Below, one piece after another: positions 20,425 through 63,452 of a stretch of DNA of 64,000 nucleotides. Numbering within the stretch: the stretch's first letter is position 1; each line of letters begins with the position of its first letter. Made by a program: the position numbers and the translations under genes. Source of the stretch: an uncultured virus (IMG/VR IMGVR_UViG_3300025633_000001) (Duplodnaviria > Heunggongvirae > Uroviricota > Caudoviricetes). The DNA lies in IMG/VR virus record IMGVR_UViG_3300025633_000001; one strand, given 5' to 3'. The notes below the pieces were generated by a model. The model was not told the origin of the DNA. It saw only the letters and a program-made list of their open reading frames with translations, and did not search any database.

Positions 20425-21081
20425 TCAGGTGCGGGCAGGCGGGGTGCGGCGGGGGCGGGCGGCGGGGGCAGGTCCGGGCAGCGGGTCGTCCCACCCGGCC
20501 GCGGGGTCGCGGCGAATCTCCGCGAGCATCTCCGGCGTCCGCGAGAGCCAGTGCTCGCCATTGCTGATCGGCTTGTGAACGACACCGGGTGCACGGGTGC
20601 CGGACCTGGGCGTGCGGGTCTGCCCGCTTGCACGGGCCGCCGGGCGGGGGGTACGGGCGGGCGCGGACGGTGCCGGACGTGCGGGCGTCCATCCCGGCGC
20701 ACTGCCGGACCACGGACTGCTGGACCGACGTCGCCGGCGGCGGGTCGGCTTCAGTCCCTTGACCCGGTCGGCCACGCGCTTCCGGCCTTTCCCCATCTCG
20801 ACGACGAGTTCCTTGACGAGACGGCGCTGGACCGCCCATACCTTGGTGCGGCGCAACTGGGTCAGCAGGCTCTTGGCGCGGCGGTTCAGCGGGCGCCAGT
20901 GTCCCGCCTGGGGGCGTCCGGGTGGGGTGGACGGGGCTGCCCGCTTCCACCGGGAGCGGTGGATCTCGTTGACCAGCTCACCGACCATGACGTGCTGCAC
21001 GGATGCGTGCTTGGTGCGGCGAAGGCGGTGTATCAGGTGCCTTCCCCTGCGGCTCAGCCTCTTGTAGTCGCGTTGTGCCAT
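20425..21081 (-). CDS. Very basic hypothetical protein with internal duplication
   Basis: LSRRGRHLIHRLRRTK...VGELVNE repeated as LNRRAKSLLTQLRRTK...VKELVVE; GAGGAGG RBS. Confidence 0.5.
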   Translation of the reverse strand: MAQRDYKRLSRRGRHLIHRLRRTKHASVQHVMVGELVNEIHRSRWKRAAPSTPPGRPQAGHWRPLNRRAKSLLTQLRRTKVWAVQRRLVKELVVEMGKGRKRVADRVKGLKPTRRRRRRSSSPWSGSAPGWTPARPAPSAPARTPRPAARASGQTRTPRSGTRAPGVVHKPISNGEHWLSRTPEMLAEIRRDPAAGWDDPLPGPAPAARPRRTPPART

Positions 21082-22883
21082 GCGGGTACTGCCTCCTCGG
21101 GGGCGTAATCAGGTGTCGCGGTGGCGGACCCGGACCCGGACAGGGCCGGGACGGGAGGCTTCTGCGTGACGGCGGACGGCGGGGCCGGGGGCATCGGGAT
21201 CGGCTCGCGGCGGGGCGCGGCGATCGCAGGCTGCACCTGCCCGCGGGCGGCGGCGTCCTGGCCGGGGAGTTCCGCCTGCCGGTAGCCAGGCAGGTCCCAG
21301 ACGGGCGTCATGACCGCCTCGACGGGGCGGGTGTTGCGGTGGATCACCAGCATGTGCCACTTCGCCAGCATCCGGATCCGCTCCGGGGGGAACAGGCGTT
21401 CCTGCCGGGGGGTGCGGGTCTTGGAGCCGTCCGGGTTCCTGGTGTGATCCCAGGTGTCCCGCATCCCGCACACCGACGACAGGGATTCCAGTTCGGTCTC
21501 GTCGGTGAAACCCCCGCCGATGACCTTGACGGTGAAGTTGGTCTTGATGGTTTTCGCGTCATGCTCGCCCCACCGGGCAGTCAGCTGGGACAGCGCCTGG
21601 ATCCCGGCGATGACCGTGATGTTGTAGCCCGCGGCCACGCTGGTCCACTTGTGCAGCGGGACGGGCACGATGGTGGCGACCTCATCGAGCGCGAGCATGA
21701 GCGGGCGGGCGAGCCGTCCGCCGTTCGCGGCTGCTGCCTGCTTGGCTGCCTCGAACAGCTCGTCCGTGAACGCGGCGAAGTACGGGGCGAGCGAGCCGTG
21801 CTCACGGTCCGAGCCGATCATGTAAACGGTGCCGAAACCGACGTCGGCGAACAGCCGGCAGTCGAAACCGCCACCGGGGACAGGGCAGGCGGTCGACGCC
21901 ATCTCCGGATCGTCCATCCAGCGCAGCGCGCCCGCGGCGCCCGCGGCGACGTGGCCTAGCTGCTCGTCGTTCGCGCACAGGGCCTCCAGCGCCTGCGCCC
22001 AGCCCGGCGCGGCGTACTCGCTGGCCAGGATCGCGGCGGGGGCGGGGGCGGACGGGTCACGGACCCACGCGGTGACATCGCGCATGGTGGCCCCGGCGAG
22101 CGCCCCGGCGTGCAGCATCAGGCGGAGCAGGTCGGCGCCCTTGGCGTCCCAGTAGGCGTCTTTCCCGCCCTTGTCGGACGGCGCGGCGGCCATCAGCGCG
22201 CCCGCCCGTCGGATCGCGGTGCGGGGATCCTGGCAGCCCTCCAGCGGCGACCACGCGAGCGTCGACAGGATGCCGCCGTCCCCGTCCGGGTTCAGCACCC
22301 AGACCGGGCCCGCGGCCTCGCGGGCGGCGATGGTGTGGAGGTACAGGTCAACCCGCGAGGAGGTGGCCAGCAGCGAGCCGGGGGCGTTCATCGCCCACCC
22401 GGCGATCAGCGCGGTCTTCATGGTGCGAGGAGGAGCTATGACGAGGTAGGAGTCTTCAAGCGAACCGGCGAGATCCTGGCCTCTAGCGCGGCCGAGCGAA
22501 ACGGCGGCCGCGGACGGGATGAGGCCGGGGCAGGTGCGGCGGGCGTGGCGGGCGGCCGTCTCCGGGGACAGCTTGGCGCGCAGTTCCCGGCGGGTCGCGG
22601 TGCCCTGGTACTTCCGGCGGGCGCGCATGGCGGCCTTGCCGCCGGAGCGGTGCCAGGCGCGGTCCTCCCACAGCTTCAGCCCGGCGTGCATCAGCCCGGC
22701 GGCGGCGACGGCGACGGGAAGCGGGGCCAGCGGCGGGACGTGACCGGCGTAGTCGGCGACCCCGGAGGCAGCAAGGGCGGTGCCGTAGGTCAGGACGTAC
22801 GGAGCGGAGGCCCTGGCCATCACGGTCCGCTTCAGCTCGGCAGCACGGCGGATCCTGCCGGGAGACCTCGCGGTTGCGGTCAT
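21054..22883 (-). CDS. TraG/TraD/VirD4-like coupling-protein ATPase
   Basis: N-terminal TMs, APPRTMKT, WSPLEGC, LALDEVATI, QALSQLTARWG motifs. Confidence 0.85.
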   Translation of the reverse strand: MTATARSPGRIRRAAELKRTVMARASAPYVLTYGTALAASGVADYAGHVPPLAPLPVAVAAAGLMHAGLKLWEDRAWHRSGGKAAMRARRKYQGTATRRELRAKLSPETAARHARRTCPGLIPSAAAVSLGRARGQDLAGSLEDSYLVIAPPRTMKTALIAGWAMNAPGSLLATSSRVDLYLHTIAAREAAGPVWVLNPDGDGGILSTLAWSPLEGCQDPRTAIRRAGALMAAAPSDKGGKDAYWDAKGADLLRLMLHAGALAGATMRDVTAWVRDPSAPAPAAILASEYAAPGWAQALEALCANDEQLGHVAAGAAGALRWMDDPEMASTACPVPGGGFDCRLFADVGFGTVYMIGSDREHGSLAPYFAAFTDELFEAAKQAAAANGGRLARPLMLALDEVATIVPVPLHKWTSVAAGYNITVIAGIQALSQLTARWGEHDAKTIKTNFTVKVIGGGFTDETELESLSSVCGMRDTWDHTRNPDGSKTRTPRQERLFPPERIRMLAKWHMLVIHRNTRPVEAVMTPVWDLPGYRQAELPGQDAAARGQVQPAIAAPRREPIPMPPAPPSAVTQKPPVPALSGSGSATATPDYAPEEAVPAWHNATTRG

Positions 22884-23716
22884 GACCGTGACCTCCTTCT
22901 CCGCTGCGGTGGCCGCCCGGACGGGTCGTGCTCGGGATTACGGATGCCGGGCCGGTCGCGCGGCGCCCGGTCCCAGACCGGATCACGGCCCGGCGTCGGC
23001 CTGACCGACGCGATGTGGTTCGGGAGATGCGACTCCCCGGCGTGAGCGGCACGGCGGTGGTCGCGACTCCACGCCTCGCCCTCAGCGCTTTCCAGCCACT
23101 CGACAGCCGGGTCTTTCGGCCTGGTCACCGTGACCTCCTCGGGGCGCGCTGCGCCCGCTCCTGCCGGTCCGACTCCCGCTGGAGGCGGATCAGGTCCTGC
23201 TCGGCGTCGACCCGCTGGAAGTGCCACCAGCGCTGGACCGGGCTCAGCGGGCGCTCGGCTTCCAGTACCCGGCCGTTGAGGTCGTCGCAGGGAGGGGTCT
23301 CCTCGCGGATGCCCGCGCGGCGCTCGTACAGGGCCTGCGTGTGCAGGTCGCGCACCGCCTTGCGGAACGCCGCGGCCTGCTCGGCGGTCCCGGTGCGGAT
23401 GCCTGGGAACCAGCGGCCCATCAGTTCCTCCCCCGGCGGCCCTGGACGCGGGCCTGCACCCGCCGGAACTGCTCCCGCTCCCGGCGCCCGCGCTTGCACG
23501 TCTCGCGAAAGGCCCGGAGGCGGCTCGCATCGTCATACAGCCCCAGCGCGGACGCGTCGGCGAAGGTCCGCCCGATCGCGGGGTCGACCCGGCGCGGCTG
23601 GAAGTCCGCGCGGATCCGGGCGGACAGGTTGTCGGCCTTGATCTGCTCCTCGCGGCGGCGCTCCTGCTGCATCCGCTCGGCCTCGCGGTCCTGGCCGAAT
23701 CCGGGCCACTTGAGCA

Positions 23717-25509: not shown

Positions 25510-25716
25510 TCAGGCCGCCGCCCGCTCAGGTTCGGTGCCGAGGGCGCGAACCTTCGACTCGCGGTAGCGTCTGTGTCCGCCTGGGGTCTTCTCGGCGTCG
25601 AGGAGGCCGCAGGCGTTCCAGTAGCGCAGGCTCCTCGGGGAGACGCGGCGAAGCGCTGCGGCCTCAGCAGGCGTAAGCAGCCGGTCCTCCGCGTCTCGTT
25701 CCGAAGCAGTGTCCAC
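25510..25716 (-). CDS. BldC/MerR-like (excisionase-type) HTH protein
   Basis: LLTPAEAAALRRVSPRSLRYW...KTPGGHRRYRESKV. Confidence 0.8.
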   Translation of the reverse strand: MDTASERDAEDRLLTPAEAAALRRVSPRSLRYWNACGLLDAEKTPGGHRRYRESKVRALGTEPERAAA

Positions 25717-25762
25717 GTTCTCCGTCCTTCTAGCCGGTCTGGCCCGGCTTGCCGTTTTGGCC

Positions 25763-25840
25763 GTCTACCCCTTAACGTATAGACCTAGACGACAGTCGTC
25801 AAGTCCTAGACGATCGAAACGGGTCTAGAGCTATACGCTT
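25763..25840. promoter_or_regulatory. Divergent promoter region with TAGAC operator-like repeats
   Basis: CCTAGACGA at 25784 and 25805 (21 bp apart), inverted GTCTAG at 25823, TACGCT -10 at 25834. Confidence 0.55.
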
Positions 25841-25845
25841 GGAAG

Positions 25846-26184
25846 GTGGATAATGCCCCGCTCGCAGATGAGGCCGCTAGCGCGCTCGCCGTGCTGCGCA
25901 AGTTGCTCGACCGCATCGACGCGATGGACGGATCTGACGCGAGGACGACCGCGATACGCGAGCTGGCCGAGGCGATCCAGGAGCTCTACAACCGGGCGGC
26001 CGAGATCCGCAAGAACGAGATGTTCCGCATCAGGGAACGTGAGCAGTTGTCACTAGCCAAACTCGCCGACAAGGTGGGGATCAGCAAGGCTCGCGCCGAC
26101 CAGCTCATCAAGGCCCGAGAGAAGGAGGACGGCAATGCTAGAGCCGATGACGGTGCGGGTGGAGGTCTGGCCAGTCGTTGCTGA
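25846..26184 (+). CDS. HTH regulator
   Basis: LSLAKLADKVGISKARADQLI. Confidence 0.7.
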   Translation: MDNAPLADEAASALAVLRKLLDRIDAMDGSDARTTAIRELAEAIQELYNRAAEIRKNEMFRIREREQLSLAKLADKVGISKARADQLIKAREKEDGNARADDGAGGGLASRC

Positions 26185-26647
26185 TGAAGTCGGACTATGG
26201 CTGATCAGCGGCGACGATGCCTGGCGGTCAGACAACGTGATGGCGGACAGCGACCTGCATTTCGAGGTTGAGTTCCTTCTCGGGGGCTACGGGATCACCG
26301 AGACGAACGCCCTGCACTCCACATCGTGGAGGCCTCAGGGAACGGCAGTCATCCTGACCTACATGGCGGCGATGGAAGTCGGCGGGTTCGCCCGCGACTA
26401 CTGGCCTTCCGCTCAGCCGATCACGCCGGCGCTCGCCGAAGCAGTCGGCAAGCCCCCGACGCATGCGCCGACAGAACCGCCCGTACCGCGGTTCATTGAC
26501 GTCCTGTTCCACGGGCTGCGGCACCTGCACTACCTGATGGACAACGACGCGACCAACGCCACCGCGTTGGGTGACCTGTGGCAACGGCACCTCGAACCGT
26601 TCCGGCCCGCGCTCGCCGGCATGTACTCCGAGAGGCATGTGGCATGA
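26135..26647 (+). CDS. Degenerate Nudix-fold protein
   Basis: HSTSWR...VILTY...DVLFHGLRHL; canonical Nudix box absent. Confidence 0.5.
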   Translation: MLEPMTVRVEVWPVVADEVGLWLISGDDAWRSDNVMADSDLHFEVEFLLGGYGITETNALHSTSWRPQGTAVILTYMAAMEVGGFARDYWPSAQPITPALAEAVGKPPTHAPTEPPVPRFIDVLFHGLRHLHYLMDNDATNATALGDLWQRHLEPFRPALAGMYSERHVA

Positions 26648-27023
26648 CGACGCCGCTTTCCGAATGGACCTGCTACCACTGCGGCGAGAAGTGCGGCGGC
26701 CGGTCGCCGCGCGGATACGCGGGCCTTACCAGCCTCAGCGAGCCGCTGCACGCCACGTGCAGCCCCGACGACGCGAACCTGTACCCGGACTGCCATCGCA
26801 GGATTACCGAGTTCGGCGAGCCGACCGGGGCGCTGCGGAACGTTGACCCTAAGCCGGTCGGGATCGAGGGCATCGTTCACAGCAGCTAGCCCGGACACAG
26901 CAAAGGCCGGGCGTTCTAGCGCCCGGCCAGAGCTGATCATCAGCGAGTAGCCGACGAATCCACCAGTGCCCATCGTAAGGCACTACCTCGCCGACCTCGC
27001 GTTGAGCATGCGCGAACGGAGGG

Positions 27024-27719
27024 GTGTGCTTGGCCTGCAACGCGCCGCAACGCCAGTGTCTTGAGTGGCACGTCAAGCCGCACCTAGACGACCCCGAGTT
27101 CTACAAAGGGGACCTGGCCAAGGGTTTCGATGATGGCTACAGCGCACGTTGCCCGGCTCACGACGACAGGCACCGCTCGTTCACGGTCAACCCCGGCAAG
27201 CACCGTATCTGGTACCAGTGCCACGCCGGATGCGACCAGCTGGCAGTCCGGGCCGAACTCATCGCCAAGGGCGTACCTGATGAGTGCCTGCCCATCTCGA
27301 AGCAGCGACAGGAGGACTTGATCGAACAGCTGAACCGGCTGCTCACCACCGCAGGCATGGAGGACGGCCACAAGGTACTGCTGGCGCTGGCCCACGTGCG
27401 CGGGATGAGCGAGTTGCCCAGAGGGAAGAAGCTTGAGGCGCTGGCCGCCGACGCGAGCACGATCTCTAACGCCAGTGCGTACCGTTACAAGAGGGCCGGA
27501 GCGCGGGGGCAAGACCCGACTTCTGGAAGTTACCCCACTAGTCAAGCCGAAAGCAAGAACCAAAGGTCACCTCGGTGTTTCCCCGCATCAGAAAACTCTC
27601 ACGGTGCGAGTAGCTCTCACGGTGATAGCTCCAAAACTCTCACGGTGAGAGTTGGCGGCAATGCTAATAACAGGACGACCAATTCTCGAACCGAGAAAAC
27701 GGGAGATGAGGCAGCATGA
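27024..27719 (+). CDS. Primase-type Zn-finger + HTH-like protein (copy 1)
   Basis: RCPAHDDRHRS...CHAGC; no TOPRIM or helicase domain seen; paralog at 59811-60302. Confidence 0.7.
   Translation: MCLACNAPQRQCLEWHVKPHLDDPEFYKGDLAKGFDDGYSARCPAHDDRHRSFTVNPGKHRIWYQCHAGCDQLAVRAELIAKGVPDECLPISKQRQEDLIEQLNRLLTTAGMEDGHKVLLALAHVRGMSELPRGKKLEALAADASTISNASAYRYKRAGARGQDPTSGSYPTSQAESKNQRSPRCFPASENSHGASSSHGDSSKTLTVRVGGNANNRTTNSRTEKTGDEAA
27596..27653. repeat. Three CTCTCACGGTG palindromic boxes
   Basis: Copies at 27596, 27614, 27637; third is perfect AACTCTCAC-G-GTGAGAGTT. Confidence 0.85.
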
Positions 27720-28105
27720 TTAGTCCCGAGGTCATCCCCTTCGGCAAGTACAAGGGGCAGTCCGTCGAGGTCGTGGCCGCCGACACGGACTACTGCGAGT
27801 GGCTCACTGCGCAGAAGTGGTTCAAGGGCAAATACCAGAGTCTCTACAGGACGCTAACCAGCCACGGGACCGAGCCGACAGCCAGTACGGCCCCGCCGCT
27901 TCCCGTCTTCATCGGTGAGACCGAACCTGCATCCGCTATCTCGGAGACCGCCGAATACTGGCCGCCATGGGAGCCGCCCCCGGTGCCCGGCTGTCTGGCC
28001 GAGTCGGGAATCCCGGTGACCGGGCTTGTGTGGTGCCCGGTGCACGAGGAGTACGAGGAGCTGTGCGACGGTGCGTCGGCCGTTCGCCTTGCGGGCACTC
28101 GATGA
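27716..28105 (+). CDS. PFGKYKG-domain (DUF3820/ExoX C-terminal-like) protein
   Basis: IPFGKYKGQSV...YCEWL. Confidence 0.65.
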   Translation: MISPEVIPFGKYKGQSVEVVAADTDYCEWLTAQKWFKGKYQSLYRTLTSHGTEPTASTAPPLPVFIGETEPASAISETAEYWPPWEPPPVPGCLAESGIPVTGLVWCPVHEEYEELCDGASAVRLAGTR

Positions 28106-29683
28106 CTGCTACCGCTGCGGAACGGCCCGCCACGGATAGCTGGCCGCAACCAGGATCACCAGCCCGTAGACGCCGCACCAGATGGCGACCTCGTAGCTGC
28201 CCGGGTTGCCCATCACCCTCGCCGCCGCCCTGGCCCATCCGGTGAGCCACAGGACCAGGCCAGAAAAGATCCAGATGGCAAGGTAGGCCGCGATGAAAAG
28301 CATGAGTCCCCCCGTATTACTTGCTGTAGCGAGTCAGACGCTTACGGTAGCGCAGCAACCGGCGTCCGGGGTGGCCCTTGTCACTTCCAAGGTCACAACC
28401 CCCAGCGAACGGAGACACGCGATGACGATCGAAGAGGCTGAGGCTCACATCGGCGATGGAGTGGTGTACGCGCCTGCCTACGGCGAGCGGGAAGACGGCG
28501 TGATCACCAGTGTCACCCGCACGCATGTGTTCGTGATGTACGCCGGGGACCTGCACTCCAAGGCGACCAGCCCGGGCGACCTGTTCTTGCTCGCCGCCGC
28601 TTTGGCCCCAACGAACGGAGACACGACACCATGACCGAGACTGAACGCCCCCGGAAGGGTGAACCGCATACTGCCTTCGAGATTGAGCGCAGTGAGGACG
28701 GCCCCCGCATCAAGCTCTGCCGGATGGAGCACTCGTTCACTTTGGAGGAAATGCGGCGCTACGCCAGCTTCCTGCAGACCATGGTTGACAAGATCGAGTC
28801 CGCACCGCAGGATTCCCGGCCGCCCGAGCCCGCCGGTGACAAGTACCTAGTATGGCTAGACGAGCGGATTCGCTCTATCGGTGCCTCATCATGGGGCGAC
28901 GAATCGAACAAGCAGGGCGTGCTGAGCGGATTCCTCGCCGCCCGTGAGACTTACGTGCACCTATGGAGCCGTCATGCCTGACTGTGATCGCGACGGAGGG
29001 CTGACACCACGACCGGCCTCCGGGTAAGCGGCTGCTGCCGAGACGGCTTGCTGGTCTGCGGAGACACGACGCAGTACTGGATCTGCCGCAACTGCGGTAA
29101 GCCATGTGACGCGATACGGAATCCCCCGATCGACCAGCCGGAGGGGCTGACGCCATGACCGAGGACACCGAATCTGCCGCACGGAGGGCTCCCAGTGGTC
29201 CCGGCTGGCCCCTGGAATCCCCGCCGCCAGGACGCGGGGACCACACCGACGGAGCTGGCCGCGAGTGGCAGATGGATACTGACGGCCGCTGGTGGATAAA
29301 GGCCGGCGACCTGTGGTATCCGTCATTCCCCGAGACAATGCCCGGCGCTGCCGAGACGACGGGAGACTAGACGACGTGGGCGACAAGATGACGTGTCCAG
29401 GCTGCGGCGCCCACACGTCCAATGTGCTGGCCGCGGTCTGTAATGGCGAGCCCTGCCCGTACTGCGGGCTGTCGGCCGACGCCATCGGTGAGATCAGCGA
29501 TGTCCGCCGTAAGCGCGCCGATGAGGAGCTGAAAGAGCGGCTGGAGAAAGCGCTGACCGAGCGGGACCGCGCGCTGTCAGAGGCGGCGAAGCACCGGCAG
29601 GCAGTAGAAGACGCCCGGCGCGCGCTCGGCTGCACGCATCCTTACGCACCACACACCGCACCAGGATGGGGAGACGAGACACC

Positions 29684-30100: not shown

Positions 30101-31105
30101 GTCTCTGTCACCTGCGGCTTTTGTCTTGTGATTCTCAAATTGTGAGAGTACCGTCCCTTTGCATTCAGGGTTCATCCAGCTATCTGGAAGGTTCCGGGCA
30201 TGGCGGCAAGGGGAGAAGCCGCGGGGGCGGAAACGTTCGGACCGCTCGCGGCGTTGCGCAGGGAATTCACCAGGTGGCAGATCTTCCGGTCGGACACCGG
30301 GCGGTTCTGGGCCACGAGGATCGGCGGGGCATGGCGGCGCCCGCCTGCCAACCCGCCCGTCTGGTGGGCGATGACAGTGTCCGGTGATAACCCGGAGCAG
30401 CTGCGCAGGGAGCTGGCCGTCCAGGCTGGCAGCGTACCGGGCTAGGCCTCAGGCTTCACGGCGGCAGTGGGCGGCCGTTCTGACCCCCGGAGCGCCCAGG
30501 GAGAGAGTCGCCGCCGTGCAAGAAGGGACCGCGCCGGTCCCGCTCCCGCACACCCGTCCGGCGCGGTCCCGCACGATGACGTGCACCAGAACGATCGGCG
30601 GCGCCGGGGTGAAGGGGCGGTCAGCGCTGGCCCTTGACGATCCTCATCAGGGGGAGACCCGGCGCGGGGGCGTCAGGCGGCGCGCTGATGGCCGTGCACA
30701 TCATCGCCGACCGGATCTCCTCCTCGAGGGCGGCCAGCCGGACCCCGTTGAGCATCAGCTCCGTGAGCTCCCCGCGCTGGCGGATGTCCTGCCGGAGCAG
30801 CTCCCGGTTCTCCGTGATCCCCGCGAGTGCCGCGGACATGAGCGCTTCAAGCCGCCGTCCCCGGTCCGGTCCCGGTGTCGCTGCCGCATCACCCATAGCT
30901 GTCATTCCTCCCCAGTGCCCTTTCCGGGCACCCGTGCTAACGCAGCCTCCGCGGCTATCGTCGTGCGGCCTGATGCTCCCCAGCACCAGGCGCGCCGACT
31001 CCACAAGACGCGGCATTCAGGCCGTTTGCCACGTGTAGGCCACATTGTTACAGCGGCGTCACAGTTTGCGCAATCGCGCGGGAGGGAATCGCGTACAGCG
31101 CCCGG

Positions 31106-40329: not shown

Positions 40330-40549
40330 GTCATGCGTGACCTCATGCTAACACGCATGACCTGTGAGCACGACCAACTAGCATGTGTTCTTAACATGAT
40401 GTAGTGTCATGCTTGCACTGAACGCAGCTAGCCAGAACGGGAACGGCAAGATGGTGGGGACTAGTGGCAATCGGCATCACCATCTGGATTCAGGCCCTCT
40501 CGGAGCCTGTGCACGGCCAGCACTCCGCACGCGCGGAGGTGGTGCGGTT

Positions 40550-41428
40550 ATGGGCATCAGGCTCGTCTGCGAGGTGCTTGACCACTACCACGGCCCGGAC
40601 GGGCACAAGCTCTGGCTCATCGCCTGGGCCGAGAAAGCCAACGACCGGACCCGCGCCGGCTGGCCGACGAGAGAAGTTCTCGCCCATCGCACAGGCAGGT
40701 CCCAGGTCCGCGTGTCGAACATCTCTACGGAACTGTGTGCCGAGGGAATCCTCAAGCGCGACGGCGGCGGCCATCGCGGCGCCCCGGCGCGGTTCATCAT
40801 GCTCCCGCTCACGACCGAAAGTAAGGGTTCGGAGCTGGAGAACCCTAAAGGCGACGTTGAGGGTTCGGAGCTAGCGAACCCTACTAACGCCGATTTGGGT
40901 TCGGAATCAGCGAACCCTAAACCGGAGGTAAAGGGTTCGGAATCGGCGAGAAAGGGTTCGGAATCGGCGAGAAAGGGTTCGGAGCCGAGTCCTGGACCTG
41001 CGGAAACAGGCTCACTACCCCTCATTATCCCCTCAGTACAACAACCCTCATCCTTCGAGGCGGACGCTGACGCGCCCACCGCGCCGACAGCCCAAACCAT
41101 CCTTGCCAGCTTTATCGACTGGGTGCGCGGCAACGGCGGCGACCTTACCGACCAGACCAAGGGCAAGCTCGCCCGCCAGATCGGCAAGCTCGTCGCCGAG
41201 GGCAGGGACGACCGGCATATCCGCAAAGGGCTTGCCGACTGGTTCCTCGCCAGCAAGAACACATCCCTGCTCGATGACTTCGTGAACGACGCCATCAACG
41301 CAGACGCGCGGAACCGCCTCGCGCAGAACGGGCACGGCCCGAAGAAACCGCAACGCGACTACTCCCGCGGCGGTGCGGGCGACCCGCTTACTGATCAGGT
41401 CTACGGCAAAGGAAAGACCCGCATATGA
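40550..41428 (+). CDS. Replication initiator (wHTH, internal iterons)
   Basis: WPTREVLAHRTGRS wHTH; internal repeats; upstream of DnaC-like and DnaB genes. Confidence 0.78.
   Translation: MGIRLVCEVLDHYHGPDGHKLWLIAWAEKANDRTRAGWPTREVLAHRTGRSQVRVSNISTELCAEGILKRDGGGHRGAPARFIMLPLTTESKGSELENPKGDVEGSELANPTNADLGSESANPKPEVKGSESARKGSESARKGSEPSPGPAETGSLPLIIPSVQQPSSFEADADAPTAPTAQTILASFIDWVRGNGGDLTDQTKGKLARQIGKLVAEGRDDRHIRKGLADWFLASKNTSLLDDFVNDAINADARNRLAQNGHGPKKPQRDYSRGGAGDPLTDQVYGKGKTRI
40824..40983. repeat. Iteron cluster / probable replication origin
   Basis: Six GGGTTCGGA, three paired with inverted GAACCCT; 21-bp tandem AAAGGGTTCGGAATCGGCGAG. Confidence 0.8.
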
Positions 41429-52152: not shown

Positions 52153-52227
<75 letters not shown>

Positions 52228-52228
52228 C

Positions 52229-52287
52229 GGTTGCGGGTTCGAGTCCCGCCGTTCGGCTCGTCCGGGCGTAGCTCAATCGGTAGAGCA
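52229..52287 (+). ncRNA. Circularly permuted, anticodon-less tRNA-like RNA (YrlA-like topology)
   Basis: T arm GCGGG-TTCGAGT-CCCGC, then acceptor hairpin CGTTCGG-CTCGT-CCGGGCG, then TA + D arm GCTC-AATCGGTA-GAGC. Confidence 0.7.
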
Positions 52288-52291
52288 GGGG

Positions 52292-52323
52292 AACGCGCGT
52301 TCAGGGCAACCTGGGCGCGCGTT
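52292..52323 (+). terminator. Strong GNRA-capped hairpin ending the tRNA unit
   Basis: AACGCGCGTTCAGG-GCAA-CCTGGGCGCGCGTT. Confidence 0.55.
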
Positions 52324-52686
52324 GCCTATTGCGCCCCCACGCCTCTTCCCTCGCTGCCGCTCTAACTCCCAGCTAACGCTGGGACTTGGACTTCGCCCGC
52401 TGCTGTCCGGGTCCGGCCGGAGCCGGGGAAGGTGTCGAGCATGAGACCAGTCTCCTCCGGGCGGCTCCCCCAGGCCTCTGGCGGACCCGGAGGTCGTGCG
52501 TTGCTCCTTTCGAACGGTTCTCGAAGCAGCGGCGCAGGCCTCGCGGTCTGTTTTCCGCGCTCTCCGTCATGGGATCAGTTCCGGGGACAATACCTGCGCG
52601 ATCGCAGTAGTTCACGGTGGTATAGATAGTGCCTTTTACCTGCACGTATATACGCCTAGGACCCTCTGCATACTCCGGGTAAGCGA

Positions 52687-52730
52687 ACTCGTAATGCGTA
52701 GGTCATCGGTTCGATTCCGATAGGCGGCTC
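52687..52730 (+). other. attP core = 3' half of tRNA-Thr(CGT)
   Basis: CTCGTAA loop, TGCGT, AGGTC, ATCGG-TTCGATT-CCGAT, AGGCGGCT with no 5' half; next to integrase stop; arm-like TGGGA(T/C)CA at 52570 and 52779. Confidence 0.85.
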
Positions 52731-52761
52731 GATCTGACCAGCAGATATACCACCAGAATCG

Positions 52762-54195
52762 TTAACGATCCTGGCCTGTGGGACCATTCTTGGTTCCAGT
52801 TATTCTTTTGTTATCAAAAGCGTAGAGGTCCCCGACGCGGTCCGCGGCGTCCTCGAGGAGCCCTTCGGAGGCGTGGCTGTACCGGCTCGTGATCCGGATG
52901 TCGGAGTGGCCGAGCGCCTGCATCACGACCGCGATGGCCACGCCGCGTTCGAGCATGATGGTCGCCGCCGTGTGCCGCATGATGTGCAGCCGCTGGCGCG
53001 ACATCCCGGCTGACTCGAGGATGGACTGCCACTCGCCCCAGTCGCGGCGAGGGTCGACCGGCCGGCCGTTCCACTGGGTGAAGACGAGCTCGTTCTCCTC
53101 CCACTCGGCGTCGGCTGTGAGCCGCTGGAGATACTGCGCGTCCCGGTGGGCCTTCAGGGCGGGCAGGAGCTCGCGGGGGAGCTTCACCCGCTTGCGCCGC
53201 TTCTCCTTGATCGGCCGCAGCACCAGCCCCCCGGATATCTCAGTGCACCCGCGGGGGAGCTTGCGCTTCGGGCAGTACTGGGCATGGGCGGTGCAATCGC
53301 GCTCGCACAGTTTCCCCCTCGTCCCGGACGCGCTCCGGGCCGTGTCGCCGCCGTCCTGCGGGCAGACATGCTTGCGGCCCTGCTTCCTGGCTGCCTTCGG
53401 GCACGGCTTCGGGCAGGGCAACCGGTGGTGCCTCATACCGCAGGCGTGCGGGTCATCGCAGCCGTGTTCCCACGCGAGCCGCTGGAGCTGGTACCAGATC
53501 CGCATCCATCCCGTCTCGAGGTCGATGAAGGACCAGCGGAGCCCGAGCGCCTCACCCTGCCGCAGGCCGGTAGCGAGGCCCACCGACCACCGGACGCCGT
53601 TCGGGCGCCCCATCGCGATGGCCGCGATGTTCTGCGCCTGGGCCTGCGTCAGTGCGGTGATGTCGGGTTCGTCGGCGGACGGTGCCTGGACATGCTCGAG
53701 CGGGTTCCGCTTGACGATGCCGCTCTTGACGAGTTCCTCGTACGCGCTGGACAGGATCGCGTGGACCTTGCGGACATGGCTCGGGGCGTGCTTCTCCAGC
53801 ATCTCGGCGAAGCCGTCCTCGATCTGGTCGCGCCGCAGCCGGTCGGTTCGCATGCCGCCCCACCGCGGGTAGATGTCGTTCTTGCACTTGGAGCGGTAGT
53901 CGGCGATGGTCCGCGGCGCCCGGCCGCGACCTGGCAGGACAACGGCCAGGTGCCGTTCGAGCATCTCCCGGACCGTCGGTGCCTTGCCCGCCTTGGTGAC
54001 GCGGCCCTCATCGCGCTGCGCTTCTAGTTCCTTGACCCTGGCCCGGACATCCTTGAGCGTCTTGCGCTGGATGTGCCGGCGGTCGGGGGAGCCGTCGCCC
54101 TTGGTTCCCATCCACACCTTGGCCTCGTAGTACCCCTGTACATTCGGAGCGCTGCTTATCCACGAGTCAAGGTTGGCCTTCCGGGGCCCGGTCAT
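52762..54195 (-). CDS. int: Tyrosine integrase
   Basis: GLRQGE, HxxRH (LHIMRH), LGHS, RY catalytic motifs; Cys/His-rich insert. Confidence 0.95.
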   Translation of the reverse strand: MTGPRKANLDSWISSAPNVQGYYEAKVWMGTKGDGSPDRRHIQRKTLKDVRARVKELEAQRDEGRVTKAGKAPTVREMLERHLAVVLPGRGRAPRTIADYRSKCKNDIYPRWGGMRTDRLRRDQIEDGFAEMLEKHAPSHVRKVHAILSSAYEELVKSGIVKRNPLEHVQAPSADEPDITALTQAQAQNIAAIAMGRPNGVRWSVGLATGLRQGEALGLRWSFIDLETGWMRIWYQLQRLAWEHGCDDPHACGMRHHRLPCPKPCPKAARKQGRKHVCPQDGGDTARSASGTRGKLCERDCTAHAQYCPKRKLPRGCTEISGGLVLRPIKEKRRKRVKLPRELLPALKAHRDAQYLQRLTADAEWEENELVFTQWNGRPVDPRRDWGEWQSILESAGMSRQRLHIMRHTAATIMLERGVAIAVVMQALGHSDIRITSRYSHASEGLLEDAADRVGDLYAFDNKRITGTKNGPTGQDR

Positions 54196-54713
54196 CGCTG
54201 CCCCCCGCGCCCTGTCCGGTTCTCCGGGTCCTCGTGTTCCTCGTACCGCCTGACCCCTTCGGCGACCGCAGCGTCCAGGGTGTGCCTGCCCAGCCGGACG
54301 GCGGCCTCGGCGCGCAGCGCCTGGACACGCGGCGACTGCCCAGCGTCCGTGTCAGCGAGCACCTTCGCCGCTCTCTCCCGGGCAGTCAGCAGGGCGTGCA
54401 CGAACCTGGCCACGTACCCGGCCGACGCCTCCAGGTCCGCCCCGGCGCTGATCACCATTTCCATCGCGTCCGATTCCGGTGAGGACAGGGTGAGCCGATC
54501 CAGGGTGACCCCGAGGACATCGGCGAGGATGACGGCCTCGGCGAGCTTGACCTTCTGCTGGCCGCTCTCGATGCGCCCGACTGTCTGCTGATGCCACGGG
54601 ACGCCGCGCGCCCTCATCGCCGCCGCGAGGACATCCTGCGACATGGCGCCCCGCAGTGACTGCACATTCATGGCGAGGCGGCGGTCCAGCTCCTCCGCGT
54701 TGCTGTCATTCAT
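54192..54713 (-). CDS. XRE-family repressor coupled to int
   Basis: MSQDVLAAAM...WHQQTVGRIESG. Confidence 0.8.
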   Translation of the reverse strand: MNDSNAEELDRRLAMNVQSLRGAMSQDVLAAAMRARGVPWHQQTVGRIESGQQKVKLAEAVILADVLGVTLDRLTLSSPESDAMEMVISAGADLEASAGYVARFVHALLTARERAAKVLADTDAGQSPRVQALRAEAAVRLGRHTLDAAVAEGVRRYEEHEDPENRTGRGGQR

Positions 54714-58932: not shown

Positions 58933-59670
58933 TCAGGCGGCGAGGGCGGGCAGGTCGGCCTTGAGCGCGGCGAGGTTGATCCCGTGGCCGTCGTCGCCAG
59001 CCTTGACCAGTTCCTCGGGCAGAACGGCCCACGCTTCGTCGGACATCTGGTGCCAGGCCGGGTAGGCGATGCGGATGGTCGAACCCCACGTCACGCCGTA
59101 CAGCCAGTTCGAGTCGTAGCCCGCCAGGATGATGCAGTGGCCGCCTGCCGCTCCGCCGCCGAGGTCATCGAGCGTCCATGTCCACGGGCCGTTGCTGCCT
59201 TGAACGGCGGACATCATGTCGTTGCTGACGGTGATCCCGACGTAGGCCGAGTCGTAGGCGTCGATGGCGTAGGTCAGCGTGGGCACGTCATGGACGGCCA
59301 CGGGAGCGTAGGCGGTCACCTTGTGCTTGTAGAAGGCGTGCTTGCGGACGTAGGCCAGGAAGTCGGCCAGGACCACACCCGAGTCCTGGCCGCCCGTGTA
59401 CCGCATGTAGTACTTCACGACCTGCTCGGCGGTCGGGAAGGCCTCAGTCTCGCCGGCGTCGGCAGCAGCGGCCTTGAACAGGTGGTCTAGTCCCGCCACG
59501 CCGCAATCGCCGTAAGTATCGTTTCCGTCCATATTCCAGTCAGCGACGGACGGTACGGCGACACTCGCCGGAGCGGCCGGGAGCTTGCCGGCGGCGTAGT
59601 AGGTCAGGTCATGCAGGCCTACCGGGATCTGGCCCGGAAGGCGGCCGAGTTTGAAACTGGTCGAGGTCAT
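58933..59670 (-). CDS. Papain-like cysteine peptidase
   Basis: GNDTYGDCGVAG (Cys), GGHCIILAGYD (His), TWG. Confidence 0.72.
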   Translation of the reverse strand: MTSTSFKLGRLPGQIPVGLHDLTYYAAGKLPAAPASVAVPSVADWNMDGNDTYGDCGVAGLDHLFKAAAADAGETEAFPTAEQVVKYYMRYTGGQDSGVVLADFLAYVRKHAFYKHKVTAYAPVAVHDVPTLTYAIDAYDSAYVGITVSNDMMSAVQGSNGPWTWTLDDLGGGAAGGHCIILAGYDSNWLYGVTWGSTIRIAYPAWHQMSDEAWAVLPEELVKAGDDGHGINLAALKADLPALAA

Positions 59671-59691
59671 ACGGATTGCCTCCTATGCCTG

Positions 59692-59749
59692 TTTCTCATC
59701 ACGAGAAAAACCTGCTTCTCATCATGAGAATGTTTGTCACCTTGAGAAA
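59692..59749. repeat. Three TCTCA-N3-TGAGA-type palindromic boxes
   Basis: TTTCTCATCACGAGAAA, TTCTCATCATGAGAA, TTTGTCACCTTGAGAAA. Confidence 0.85.
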
Positions 59750-59810
59750 TTCGCCGAGCCTATGACCTGCTGATTTGACAGGCTTTCGGGCTGAGGGCTA
59801 GGAACTGGTG

Positions 59811-60302
59811 TTAGCGGTCTTGACCGGATCCCCGCGCCTTCAGCGCTCGGTAGGCTGAGGCCAGCGCGACATGGCCTAGCTTCGAGATCCGGGCAAGCTC
59901 GCCGCCCCGAGGCAAATCCGGGTAACCCTCTAGTGCTGCGAGCGCCCGCACCCTGACCTCAGCGTGGTCGCCCGTGTCTGCGGTGAGGATGTCCGCGAGC
60001 CGGTCGAGGATGTCATGCTTCTCTTTCGACGGGATCGGCAGGCATCCCGGGGTGATGCTGTACTCGCGAATCAGTGCTAGCCGTACTTTCGCGTTGTTCT
60101 CGCAGGCGAAGCAGTTGAGCTTGATCCGGTCACCGTCAACTGAGATGCCGAGCGAGGGATTGCGGTCGGCGTGGGCGGGGCACCTGACGCGAACGCTGTA
60201 CGGATCGCGCTGCCCGTCGTCGCTGATTTTGTGCTTCGCGCCGGGGAGCTTTGGCAGCACGTGCCACGTGAAGCACTCGCGAGCCGGGGAGCCGCACCCC
60301 AT
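59811..60302 (-). CDS. Primase-type Zn-finger + HTH-like protein (copy 2)
   Basis: RCPAHADRNPSL...CFAC; shares C..WHV.P.L, CLPI, LPRG, ASAYR and GQD with 27024-27719. Confidence 0.72.
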   Translation of the reverse strand: MGCGSPARECFTWHVLPKLPGAKHKISDDGQRDPYSVRVRCPAHADRNPSLGISVDGDRIKLNCFACENNAKVRLALIREYSITPGCLPIPSKEKHDILDRLADILTADTGDHAEVRVRALAALEGYPDLPRGGELARISKLGHVALASAYRALKARGSGQDR

Positions 60303-60556
60303 CAGGCCGCCGCGAGGGGGGGAGCGGGGTACGCAGAGCGCACCCACGTAAGATTGGGCATTGTCATCCTGGTCGCTTCAGGGTGGCTGCCCTCGGTTCA
60401 GAACAACGATGCGTCCAACATCGCTGAGCCGGGGGCGTTCTATTCGGTTATCGCTTACATTCTAGCGTTCCGCCAGCTCAATACCGTTAGGCGAACACAG
60501 GAACGTCGTCGGCGTGTTGCGTGCCCGCCGCAGCGTTGCAAGGTAAGGTAGTAGGC

Positions 60557-60805
60557 ATGAGTGACCTATCCAGCCATGTGCTTGACATAAGGGCCCTCGC
60601 TGCCGCTATCACGACCGTGGCCCGGCACCGAGATATCTCCTTGCGAACCGTGGCCGCAGAGACCGGCCTGAGCGCGTCCACGATCACGCGGCTTACGCAA
60701 GGCCAGAAGCCCGACGCCGATGCGCTCGTGTCGCTGCTGGCGTGGCTCAAGGCCGACGTGTCGGCGTTCGCGATCCCGCGCCCGGCAGGAAACGAGGAAA
60801 AGTGA
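60557..60805 (+). CDS. XRE HTH protein
   Basis: ISLRTVAAETGLSASTITRLTQGQKPD. Confidence 0.8.
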   Translation: MSDLSSHVLDIRALAAAITTVARHRDISLRTVAAETGLSASTITRLTQGQKPDADALVSLLAWLKADVSAFAIPRPAGNEEK

Positions 60806-62073: not shown

Positions 62074-62423
62074 GCGGGGACTAGCTCGCCGTCACGTATC
62101 CAGCCGTGCCAGTGGGAGCCGTCACGGTACGGCGTGCCGTCCGGCCCGGTGCGCCAGCACTCCACGTCGATCGATGGACTCACGGTGATGGCCGGAACCG
62201 TGCCGGTCACCTCCCACATCTCATGCGGAGGTGCCGACGCCCGGTCGGTGGTGCGCCAGCTGATTTCCGACGGCAAGCCGGGCTCAACGGGCTTGGTGTT
62301 CGGCAGGATGATCCACCAGCACTCCCGGCCGGCCTCGTCATCGTCCGGGCAGCGCCACATCATGCCCGGTTCCGGGTCACTCTCGGGAGGTGCGGCGAGA
62401 ACGCGCAGCGGGATGCCGGTCAC
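62070..62423 (-). CDS. Hypothetical protein
   Basis: ITVSPSI...WHGWIRDG motif. Confidence 0.5.
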   Translation of the reverse strand: MTGIPLRVLAAPPESDPEPGMMWRCPDDDEAGRECWWIILPNTKPVEPGLPSEISWRTTDRASAPPHEMWEVTGTVPAITVSPSIDVECWRTGPDGTPYRDGSHWHGWIRDGELVPA

Positions 62424-63247
62424 GCGGACGGCAGGTACAGGACGAGATCCTTCGGCATCGGCTTAGCCGGGCTGATTGTCCCGCCGAACACCCCGCCGAG
62501 ATACGACGCCACCCCGGCCGGGTAAACCCCGCCGGGGCTGTGCGCGGCCGTGAGAGCGAGGATGACGGCCGGGGTCGTGTGCTGCTGGCTGGCAAGCTGC
62601 TCGAGCGAGCTCATGCCGGCAGTGACCCACTGGCGGACTGCTGGGGGTGTCACGGTGCCTCCCTGGCGGATAGCGATGGCGAGAGCAACGATCTGCGGGC
62701 GCTGGACCTTGCGGACGTCACCGGGGCAGTCGGGGTGGCCCCCGAAAGCCCCGCCGCCCATCCCGTGCCAGCCGAGCCCTTCGGTGGTCGGGCTGTCGCT
62801 GATCTGTATCGGGAATCGGCCGACGTCATCGCGGCTCAGCAACTCGAGCAACTGCGCACCCGCCGCGATCTGAGCCGGGGTGAGCGGGTTCGACGGATTG
62901 CCGGCATCGGCGAACTCGCACCCGAACCAATGCGGGTTGCCATCAGCGGCGTGCCACGCCTTCCACCCGTTGACGGGACCGAACTGCCAGATCTCGCCGG
63001 CCTGCGAGACACCGAAATGGGCGCTGGCCTGCGAGGCGCTGTTGTTGAACCATGCGACGGTTCCCGGCTGGAGGTCGCCGACCATCGTGTGAACCAGCAT
63101 CCCGGTCACGCCGGACGGGACGCTCATGCCCCCGCTGTCCCCGTTCCGGCACGGCCACGACGGGCTGTTGTGCTGCACGGGCTGGCCGCTCGGGGAGGTG
63201 CCTGTTACCCGTCCGCCGGCATCGACGGAAAGTTTCTGTACCTGCAT
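62420..63247 (-). CDS. Endolysin, N-acetylmuramoyl-L-alanine amidase (Amidase_2) with LysM-like tail
   Basis: LVHT, SAHF, KAWHA, GCEF, H...HPDCPG. Confidence 0.88.
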   Translation of the reverse strand: MQVQKLSVDAGGRVTGTSPSGQPVQHNSPSWPCRNGDSGGMSVPSGVTGMLVHTMVGDLQPGTVAWFNNSASQASAHFGVSQAGEIWQFGPVNGWKAWHAADGNPHWFGCEFADAGNPSNPLTPAQIAAGAQLLELLSRDDVGRFPIQISDSPTTEGLGWHGMGGGAFGGHPDCPGDVRKVQRPQIVALAIAIRQGGTVTPPAVRQWVTAGMSSLEQLASQQHTTPAVILALTAAHSPGGVYPAGVASYLGGVFGGTISPAKPMPKDLVLYLPSA

Positions 63248-63452
63248 GTCAGTTGTCCTCTTCGCATGCTGAGCTGTTCTTCGCGTGAATGAACGCGATT
63301 CGCCCCCTGGTCAGATGTCCGCCGGGATGCGCCGGATGGCAGCGGCGGCACAAACGCCAGACGAGTCCGGTCCGCTCGTCAGTGCCGGTGTGGACGGCTA
63401 GCCAGTGCTGGAGGAGGTGCCACCAGTGCACAATGCCCACCTCCTGGCGGGG

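Follow-up and report, generated by a model that had tools for sequence, protein, structure and literature searches.

The 64,000-nucleotide (nt) stretch of DNA from the uncultured virus IMGVR_UViG_3300025633_000001 (IMG/VR; Caudoviricetes), here called the window, contains two diverged copies of a gene for a small protein that joins a primase-type zinc (Zn) ribbon to a helix-turn-helix (HTH) domain. Each gene is accompanied at its 3′ end by three palindromic boxes. The preliminary description of this DNA, made from the sequence alone, proposed that protein and boxes form a unit of a protein and its cognate cis-site under selection. This proposal is supported by the conservation of the array, by the co-variation of recognition helix and boxes and by the cassette-like boundaries shared by the second copy and one of its relatives. 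A cognate protein-site unit is well supported.

Copy 1 (c1) occupies positions 27030..27719 on the + strand and encodes a Zn ribbon, a helical region, an HTH and a tail of ~75 codons that runs through its own boxes. The open reading frame (ORF) was called at 27024..27719 (+) with GTG 27024 as an alternative start, and TTG 27030 would fit the family N-terminus ‘MAC..P’ better. The stop codon TGA overlaps the ATG of the next gene at 27716. Copy 2 (c2) lies 32 kb away on the opposite strand (59811..60302, −); it encodes 163 aa, with the Zn ribbon at ~1-88, the helical dimer region at ~92-124 and the HTH at ~133-161, and ends with TAA. Alignment of the two proteins covers 165 residues with 35% identity (E 6e-25), in agreement with their earlier recognition as diverged paralogs. 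The motif CPAHxD...CxxxC, previously ascribed to both, is present in c1 (CPAHDD...CHAGC) and has CxxC in place of its second part in c2 (CPAHAD...CFAC). Both proteins then contain ASAYR, placed at the start of the predicted recognition helix in c1 (codons 27471..27485, +) and within the predicted helix in c2 (codons 59847..59861, −). It was mistaken to regard ASAYR as the end of the protein, since the c1 ORF goes on for ~75 codons, through the boxes, to TGA.

Between helix and boxes, c1 has the stretch CCGAAAGC ... AGGTCA (27547..27569, +), with CCGAAAGC at 27547-27554 and AGGTCA at 27564-27569, translated within the tail motif ‘PTSGSY...QRS’. The corresponding stretch of c2, CCGAAAGC-CTGTCAA-...-AGGTCA (59763..59789, −), has CCGAAAGC at 59789-59782 and AGGTCA at 59768-59763; it is untranslated and equivalent to the tail ‘KPVKPRRS’ of long-tail relatives. 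Both copies therefore share these motifs and the boxes, as had been noticed, but the offsets differ (17 nt in c1, 21 nt in c2).

Box arrays and recognition helices

The three boxes of each copy were found again at the centres first reported, spaced 18 and then 23 bp in both copies. In c1, box 1 (CTCTCA-CGG-TGCGAG, 27596..27610, centre 27603) and box 2 (CTCTCA-CGG-TGATAG, 27614..27628, centre 27621) are each symmetric in 5/6 arm pairs, and box 3 (CTCTCA-CGG-TGAGAG, 27637..27651, centre 27644) in 6/6. In c2, symmetry is 5/6 in box 1 (TTCTCA-AGG-TGACAA, 59734..59748, centre 59741), 6/6 in box 2 (TTCTCA-TGA-TGAGAA, 59716..59730, centre 59723) and 5/6 in box 3 (TTCTCG-TGA-TGAGAA, 59693..59707, centre 59700). 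The window contains eight instances of TCTCA-N3-TGAGA with at most one mismatch; 0.97 would be expected, and no shuffle out of 100 gave as many. Six of the eight make up the two box clusters. At two mismatches there are 10 matches against 4.06 expected. The array regions are AT-richer than the genome (68% GC).

DNA was available for six loci: besides c1 and c2 these are L002-L005, four relatives of c2 from metagenomes. L001 and L036 only repeat the c1 sequence. Three 15-bp dyads lie 3′ of the gene in all six, no homolog with DNA lacking the boxes or the spacing. Boxes 1 and 2 abut, with 18 bp from centre to centre in 6/6 loci, and box 3 follows two helical turns on (22-24 bp). Symmetric arm positions amount to 95/108, distributed as 33/36 in box 1, 27/36 in box 2 and 35/36 in box 3, the middle box usually being the weakest. 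In the copy-1-type genes the dyads are inside the open frame.

The sequence of the half-site differs between loci together with the helix. The half-site TCTCA accompanies the helix ASAYR (c2 residues 148-152) in c1, c2 and L002, GTCCAC accompanies GAAWQ in L003, CTGCCC or CTCCCC accompanies GKAYS in L004, and GTCCCC accompanies GKAYA in L005. The differences fall at arm positions 1-3, counted from the centre; positions 4 and 5 (C and T) hardly vary between loci. Co-variation of half-site and recognition helix is thereby supported by comparison.

Further relatives are represented by proteins only, and traces of the boxes were sought in their tails. The family alignment has 73 rows, including c1 and c2, and 51 of the aligned proteins have tails of at least 20 aa, which were compared with 1000 shuffles. 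Near-repeats 6 residues apart occur in 14/51 tails (shuffle mean 0.33, maximum 3) and near-repeats 8 residues apart in 12/51, distances of 3-5, 7 and 9-11 giving 0-2. The triple with 6 and then 8 residues, equal to 18 and 24 nt, is present in 9/51 tails against a shuffle mean of 0.005. Back-translation, which was run as a count with no shuffle control, permits identical perfect palindromes 17-20 nt apart in 15/51 tails. Of these 15 tails, 10 allow a third palindrome at +23-25 and 2 allow one at +44; the other 3 have none. Single back-translated palindromes were too common to mean anything, and repeated ones alone were used.

The copy-1 subfamily comprises 18 rows, the window included, and 16 of them have long tails, all 16 ORFs being translated through the boxes. 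In thirteen of these tails SHG.. occurs twice along with L[TM]VR, as TCTCAC..GTGAGA would be translated, and the proteins have a helix of the form x[ST]A[YFC]R; two contain SDGRT repeats with the helix SRAFDY, and one was assigned to neither class. The second-closest relative of c1, P0190 (67% identical), is in the SDGRT/SRAFDY class, and eleven remoter relatives (54-59% identical) retain the class of c1. Specificity therefore changes independently of overall divergence, as would be expected if helix and boxes co-evolve. Compared with c1, boxes 2 and 3 are 7 residues further apart (21 nt, or two turns of the helix) in 10 of the 13 relatives of the TCTCAC class, a shift in distance that preserves the helical phase.

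The two copies of the window share one specificity. The sequence ASAYR is found in 3/73 alignment rows, two of which are c1 and c2, and its Ser codon is AGT in c1 and TCA in c2, so recent gene conversion between the copies is excluded. Both arrays of the window use TCTCA, and close relatives of c2 have other specificities. It looks as if selection has matched the specificities of these two 35%-identical genes within one genome, and either protein would be expected to recognize both arrays.

Two further box-like sequences were noticed. A fourth perfect palindrome, TTCTCGAACCGAGAA (TTCTCG-AAC-CGAGAA, 27683-27697), lies 46 bp past c1 box 3, just 5′ of the ribosome-binding site of the next gene. 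The intergenic sequence TTCTCAAATTGTGAGAG (30132-30148), just 5′ of a gene starting near 30200, has on its reverse strand a half-site that matches the c1 type perfectly; it may be a single extra site or due to chance.

Protein family and predicted structure

As was found in a set of 5.8 billion proteins, c2 has 34 relatives at E ≤ 1e-3, all of them metagenomic and none named beyond ‘hypothetical protein’. A 19-member profile matched 309 cluster representatives at E ≤ 1e-3, 96 at ≤ 1e-10 and 14 at ≤ 1e-30, mostly of 150-300 aa. Ten clusters that were looked up had no informative name, one being labelled ‘biotin operon repressor’. The tblastn search with c2 gave no match in 50,697 phage and 72,556 plasmid records; the search with c1 gave only Zn ribbons of primases, in 3 records, and a blastn search with positions 26000-29000 of the window found nothing. 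Among viral contigs, a first alignment search found no relative. In a second search the best 80 of 234 relatives were examined by hmmsearch, and only L036, a near-identical record of the window itself, was full length, the other 79 having the Zn ribbon only, mostly in primases of 500-950 aa. Of 401 Actinomycetota genomes, 22 gave matches, confined to profile positions ≤108 and located mostly in ORFs of primase size; L007, a weak 19-residue match found in genomes, is not a family member. In both sets, the 401 genomes and the 79 viral loci, primases match only the Zn-ribbon part of the profile.

Comparison with domain databases places the N-terminal part near primases. The primase Zn ribbon PF01807 matches c1 at E 1.2e-4 and c2 at E 2e-3, both under the 24.9-bit cut-off. 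Among the 73 members, Pfam finds Zn_ribbon_DnaG in 24, always sub-threshold, and assorted scattered HTH models, and NCBIfam gives just weak dnaG matches in 18/73. The absence of a catalytic primase or helicase part, noted earlier, was confirmed, as Pfam gave no match to a Toprim/AEP catalytic domain in c1, c2 or the 73 members and no catalytic primase, helicase or HUH domain was found in the family by Pfam. In an hhalign comparison with a Microbacterium phage primase of 828 aa (probability 94.7%), just 52 Zn-ribbon columns are common, and the Toprim and D5_N domains of that primase are lacking in the c1/c2 family. The proteins had been considered as possible truncated fragments of a known primase-helicase; this was ruled out, the family being a stand-alone one of proteins of ~160 aa and its likeness to primases being confined to the Zn ribbon. 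No named family covers the c1/c2 proteins.

The AlphaFold2 model of c2, based on the 73-row alignment, has a predicted local distance difference test score (pLDDT) of 95.1 and a predicted template modelling score of 0.85. It contains an alpha/beta Zn-ribbon domain at ~1-88, helices at 92-124 and an HTH at 133-161, and the CHC2 set is C41, H44, C64 and C67. Residues C3, C10, H14 and C87 (c2 numbering) are nearly invariant and lie outside the CHC2 ribbon and the primase domain; they possibly form a second metal site. In the N-terminal half the resemblance is to primase Zn-binding domains, namely 8dvf_H of the T4 primosome (Z 4.8, root-mean-square deviation 3.7, 77 residues) and 1d0q and 2au3 (Z 3.9), 1d0q being also the PDB entry found by profile comparison (E 3.8e-4). 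The C-terminal half resembles winged-helix/HTH domains, all with Z below 6. A Foldseek search of the PDB gave no whole-protein match at E ≤ 1e-3, and the best BFVD matches were Toprim or primase proteins and phiC31 ORF8 (E 5e-3 to 8e-3). KA1 domains, which had the best VIA-wide Z (5.7), were judged not meaningful.

The ESMFold2 prediction supports homodimer formation by c2. The homodimer scored 0.71, against 0.28 for the best of 3 controls, and the mark was reached by 20/30 proteins solved as same-chain pairs and 1/23 solved as single chains. Between runs at least 90% of contacts agree, the pLDDT of the partner is at least 78, and the interface is symmetric and involves residues 90-124 and 142-145.

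Several relatives have a modified architecture. In the metagenomic protein P0034, encoded on a 163-kb contig, a GIY-YIG nuclease domain (GIY_YIG_2, 23.7 bits against a cut-off of 22.4) replaces the Zn ribbon and is fused to the helical and HTH part of the family. The longer relatives P0067, P0068, P0100 and P0108 have ORFs that cross the array and add another small HTH (HTH_23/HTH_7/HTH_38-like), and P0073, P0075, P0083 and P0084 end in a Zn-ribbon-like motif CxxC...RxKAxR.

Cassette boundaries and genomic setting

The extent of the unit can be judged from the comparison of c2 with L003, the proteins of which are 65% identical. Their DNA is 90-97% identical from the hexamer at 60464-60459 through the leader (150 nt) and ~100 nt into the coding sequence, 57-80% in the rest of the coding sequence, 37-50% over the recognition helix, ~80% in a 22-mer around the stop codon, 33-47% over the boxes, and unrelated past either end. 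From these sharp edges of identity, a unit of ~800 bp is marked out as a cassette of candidate promoter, leader, gene, motif and boxes. Neighbouring genes differ between loci, and the gene and its boxes move together. The sequencing runs listed for this DNA are two DNA runs of peat metagenomes, one of them its likely source, and none of RNA; in their contigs no variant, joint or empty site was found at the cassette.

The hexamer TAGAAT (60459..60464, −; TAAGAT in L003), at the left edge of the shared block, is a candidate −10 element picked by eye, and the consensus scan found no full sigma-70-type promoter there. It is followed by the c2 leader (60303..60458, −), which is 90-97% identical to L003 1893-2053, more conserved than the coding part, and possibly a structured 5′ untranslated region. 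Both leaders had been described as hairpin-rich. This holds for c1, the leader of which folds better than shuffles (z −3.67), mostly through a terminator-like GC-rich hairpin with a 9-bp stem (26905..26928), but not for c2 (z −1.23), where a few compensatory changes were seen in L004. The hairpin, detected in a scan for terminator-like structures, lies between the upstream gene and c1, and thus sets c1 apart as a unit of its own.

The 22-mer ACCGCTAACACCAGTTCCTAGC (59797..59818, −) spans the stop codon of c2 and is the most conserved stretch of the copy-2 clade, with a mean pairwise identity of 0.89 against ~0.65-0.75 in the coding sequence. It occurs once in the window and is absent from copy 1, and its pattern had 0 matches in viral contigs. 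The DNA is read as ‘..DR-stop’ in c2 and L002-L004, as ‘KTANPSS-stop’ in L005 and P0008 and as the tail ‘..NP[GS]SY..KPVKPRRS’ in many relatives, copy-1-type proteins having ‘PTSGSY...QRS’ there. Because it is conserved across different reading frames, a role at the DNA level can be argued for. The conserved Zn ribbon might, for instance, read this motif and leave the variable boxes to the variable HTH.

The window looks like DNA of a temperate actinophage, from a peat-metagenome contig of ~87 kb. Head, portal and terminase genes occupy the − strand at 0.5-10 kb, with TerS/TerL candidates at 8.1-10 kb. An early operon on the + strand extends from 25.8 to 51.5 kb and encodes RecE/RecT-like proteins, a C5 methylase, an O-like initiator (ORF 40400-41425, by PHROG), a DnaC-like loader and a DnaB-like helicase, the last three forming a module at 40.4-43.4 kb. 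The c1 gene is the fourth of this operon, 24 kb of which lie 3′ of it, and other HTH genes were found near c1 by Pfam. The next gene (27716..28105, +; 129 aa), the start of which overlaps the c1 stop, has an N-terminal FGKYKG motif (ExoX-like_C, below the Pfam cut-off). The gene 3′ of c2 (58936..59670, −; 245 aa) matches only phrog_19005 of unknown function and has no Pfam match; its GDCG and GGHC motifs suggest a papain-like cysteine peptidase, and its ATG is 30 nt past the centre of box 3. A small XRE-type HTH gene (60556..60802, +) is divergent from c2, in a setting like that of an immunity region, and an endolysin gene is located at 62423-63310. A tRNA-Met gene at 52153 is directly followed, on the opposite strand, by a tyrosine integrase gene (52765-54351), and 52153-54351 could be the attachment site of a second integrated element containing copy 2. 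The GC/AT skew tracks gene orientation and is uninformative about an origin.

Two other features of the window deserve mention. A TraG/VirD4-type coupling protein (21057-22937, −; TraG-D_C E 1e-21) is encoded amid the phage-like region, beside WhiB and DUF6919 genes, which hints at a phage-conjugative hybrid or at two elements. Repeated CCTAGAC / GTCTAG dyads flanked by TATAG/CTATA are present at 25716-25846, between a MerR/Xis-like gene (−) and the first early gene (+), and are probably operators of a different regulator.

Possible functions and relation to known systems

The roles named in the preliminary description were a mini-origin, a mobile cassette and a recombination or partition site. 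A role absent from that list is at least as likely, namely a transcriptional gate at the 3′ end of the gene, made by the dimeric Zn-ribbon/HTH protein bound to the array. We favour it tentatively, at somewhat less than an even chance. Dimers of the protein would bind the three dyads at the 3′ end of their own gene, ~95-130 bp after the part that encodes the HTH. The cassette gene would be transcribed from its own promoter, and the accumulating protein would occupy the array and control, most simply block, RNA polymerase entering the downstream phage genes. The genes so gated would be the 24-kb early operon after copy 1 and the peptidase operon after copy 2, and the shared TCTCA half-site would couple the two regions, like two regulators on one operator set. 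The c1 array is inside an operon because the ORF overlaps the next start codon, and there is no room for a separate promoter after c2 because only 30 nt lie between box 3 and the next ATG. The positions of both copies, c2 in an immunity-like region and c1 between four immediate-early genes and the 24-kb early operon, are consistent with the gate.

Several observations weigh against a gate. Operators of regulators are usually found at promoters, and a scan for promoters of the sigma-70 type found none in 26800-27800 or 59600-60650, and hence none at either array. Two candidates seen by eye, TTGACA-N18-TAAGAA on the strand opposite the 22-mer and AATGCT after c1 box 3, were discarded as unconserved or lacking the final T of the −10 element. 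Sites placed inside the gene of their binding protein, or at its 3′ end, are rather to be expected of replication initiators, ParB-type centromeres and small terminases, and the homology of the N-terminal domain to a primase Zn-binding domain, found by hhalign over the 52 columns mentioned above, points to DNA replication and not to transcription. In L002 the gene stands alone on the + strand among − strand genes, with no co-directional gene after the boxes, so that no obvious target for a gate is present at that locus. The model assigns no part to the conserved 22-mer adjoining the boxes. Elsewhere in the window there are only one to three weak box-like sites (27683, 30132, 34125), and the protein is therefore not a genome-wide repressor. 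Finally, the link between protein and boxes consists of adjacency, co-variation in six loci and peptides back-read from relatives.

The main rival to the gate is an origin or priming module, in which the HTH would bind the boxes as three iteron-like sites and the Zn ribbon would engage the adjacent motif or recruit priming or helicase proteins, the unit being a cis-acting site of replication initiation or single-strand initiation. The matches of the Zn ribbon to primase Zn-binding domains (Pfam in 24/73 members, sub-threshold; 1d0q; 8dvf_H; hhalign) speak for this rather unlikely reading, as do the initiator-style co-variation of specificity and the location of the sites in or at the 3′ end of their own gene, translated in all 16 copy-1-type tails. 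Such a module would resemble lambda O, whose ori is inside its gene, SPP1 G38P, which has two origins, and the Rep proteins of ColE2 or SaPI, whose ori is immediately downstream. In addition, the family-wide conserved motif adjoins the variable boxes and could be read by the Zn ribbon, the GIY-YIG domain in place of the Zn ribbon in P0034 suggests that the N-terminal domain acts on DNA, and no primase gene was found by Pfam among the 138 ORFs of the window. However, the phage already has the O-like, DnaC-like and DnaB-like module, the protein is without a catalytic primase, helicase or HUH domain, and two such units per genome would be redundant. Nor does a consistent AT-rich unwinding element seem to adjoin the boxes, the flank past box 3, judged by eye, being AT-rich in c1 and L003 and GC-rich in L002 and L005. 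A more specific form, to which we give a low probability, is a bipartite cis-acting initiation module of an undescribed kind: the fast-evolving HTH would anchor the dimer on the boxes, and the conserved Zn ribbon would read the conserved motif and nucleate priming or replication. The GIY-YIG variant would then nick, and the two opposite-strand cassettes of the same specificity would be a matched pair of start sites. An architectural site serving partition, packaging, recombination or the pairing of the arrays 32 kb apart by bridging or looping is less probable again. In favour of it, a single genome has two arrays that share a half-site, beside paralogs that keep ASAYR with different Ser codons, two of only three alignment rows having it; a gene followed by palindromic sites resembles sopB-sopC or parB-parS; and genes of the copy-2 type follow lysis or tail genes, where some actinophages hold partition or integration cassettes. 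But no ParA/ParM-type NTPase, ParB domain, recombinase or terminase domain was found in or beside either cassette, ParB, ParA and ParM having no match among 138 ORFs (Pfam) or 89 ORFs (PHROGs). The TerS/TerL candidates and the integrase (52.8-54.4 kb) are encoded elsewhere, and no flanking inverted or direct repeats of a mobile element were seen by eye.

The remaining explanations take the boxes away from the protein or from double-stranded DNA. Binding of the boxes by another protein, such as the adjacent XRE-type HTH or a host factor, with the targets of the Zn-ribbon/HTH protein elsewhere, is improbable to a slightly greater degree than an architectural site. An XRE gene is indeed divergent to c2 and other HTH genes lie near c1, but flanking genes vary between loci where the gene and boxes travel together, and the boxes and the recognition helix of this protein vary together in the six loci and in the copy-1-type relatives. 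It is hardly probable that the boxes act as RNA or single-strand hairpins, that is as a structured 3′ untranslated region, a terminator or attenuator, or a boxB-like protein-binding RNA. Each perfect box can form a 5-6-bp hairpin, three of four tested single-stranded arrays fold better than shuffles (z −5.1, −6.9 and −5.1; c2 −1.5), and RNAalifold finds pairs with changes on both sides. These good folds and pairs, however, are a trivial consequence of repeating a palindrome. Within a locus the same sequence recurs in all three boxes, something not needed by a purely structural hairpin, the middle box cannot pair in L003-L005 (3-4/6 pairs), and just 1/13 asymmetric pairs is G.T. Moreover, the terminator scan called neither a T-run after the boxes nor a sense-strand terminator at the arrays, and Rfam 15 gave no match to them, finding in the window just tRNA-Met at the gathering threshold and in L002-L005 nothing at E ≤ 1. 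The boxes thus look like double-stranded DNA sites rather than RNA hairpins.

The kind of system is a known one, a site-specific DNA-binding protein with a cognate array; unusual are the domain make-up, the placement of the sites and the fixed geometry. In the portions of the literature available, no description was found of a stand-alone primase-Zn-ribbon/HTH protein with such sites. This unnamed phage family, represented only in metagenomes, has what appears to be a readable recognition code, in which a few helix residues change with the three inner bases of the half-site. With fold and site geometry (18 then 22-24 bp) kept constant, its members make up naturally occurring orthogonal pairs of protein and DNA, and through them the job of a primase Zn ribbon detached from its primase could be approached directly. 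Should the unit gate early transcription, it would be a phage timing switch of a new type, positioned where its own gene ends; should it start replication or priming, it would be a new minimal initiator. Two paralogs that are 35% identical and tuned to one sequence suggest a two-protein, two-site circuit.

Several known systems can be compared with the cassette. It shares with DnaG-type and phage primases (PF01807; 1d0q, 2au3; T4 gp61 in 8dvf) the CHC2 Zn ribbon with CPAH.D...C..C, but lacks the Toprim/AEP catalytic domain and the helicase, and its Zn ribbon is fused to an HTH. Antitoxins of the MqsA type have an N-terminal Zn ribbon (C4), a C-terminal dimeric HTH, a toxin partner and palindromes in their own promoter. 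The proteins described here are likewise small, with an N-terminal Zn ribbon, a C-terminal HTH and predicted binding to short palindromes; however, the Zn ribbon is of a different type, the sites are not in the own promoter, and there is no conserved partner gene among the loci. In contrast to ParB/parS, neither a ParB-type domain nor a partner NTPase was matched in the window. In phage lambda the ori iterons lie inside the O gene, and in SPP1, oriL is inside gene 38, which encodes G38P, with a second site, oriR. The present proteins are not homologous to these initiators, the O-like families of PHROG matching ORF 40400-41425 and not c1 or c2; no consistent AT-rich unwinding region is evident, and there are three sites with fixed 18/22-24 spacing. 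The similarity consists in palindromic sites in or at the end of the own gene, translated as a linker or tail, in the co-variation of domain and site between related phages, and in two sites of the same specificity per genome. The lambda repressors CI and Cro are dimeric HTH proteins that act on the triple operators OR1-3 and OL1-3, and helix and operators change together between heteroimmune phages. Unlike CI and Cro, to which they have no sequence relation, the proteins of the window carry a primase-type Zn ribbon, and their arrays are 3′ of or inside their own gene, not between divergent promoters, with no promoter found. Like CI and Cro, they are predicted dimeric HTH proteins with two arrays of three dyads at a spacing of ~2 turns, two proteins would read the same sites, and one copy, c2, lies beside a divergent XRE-type gene.

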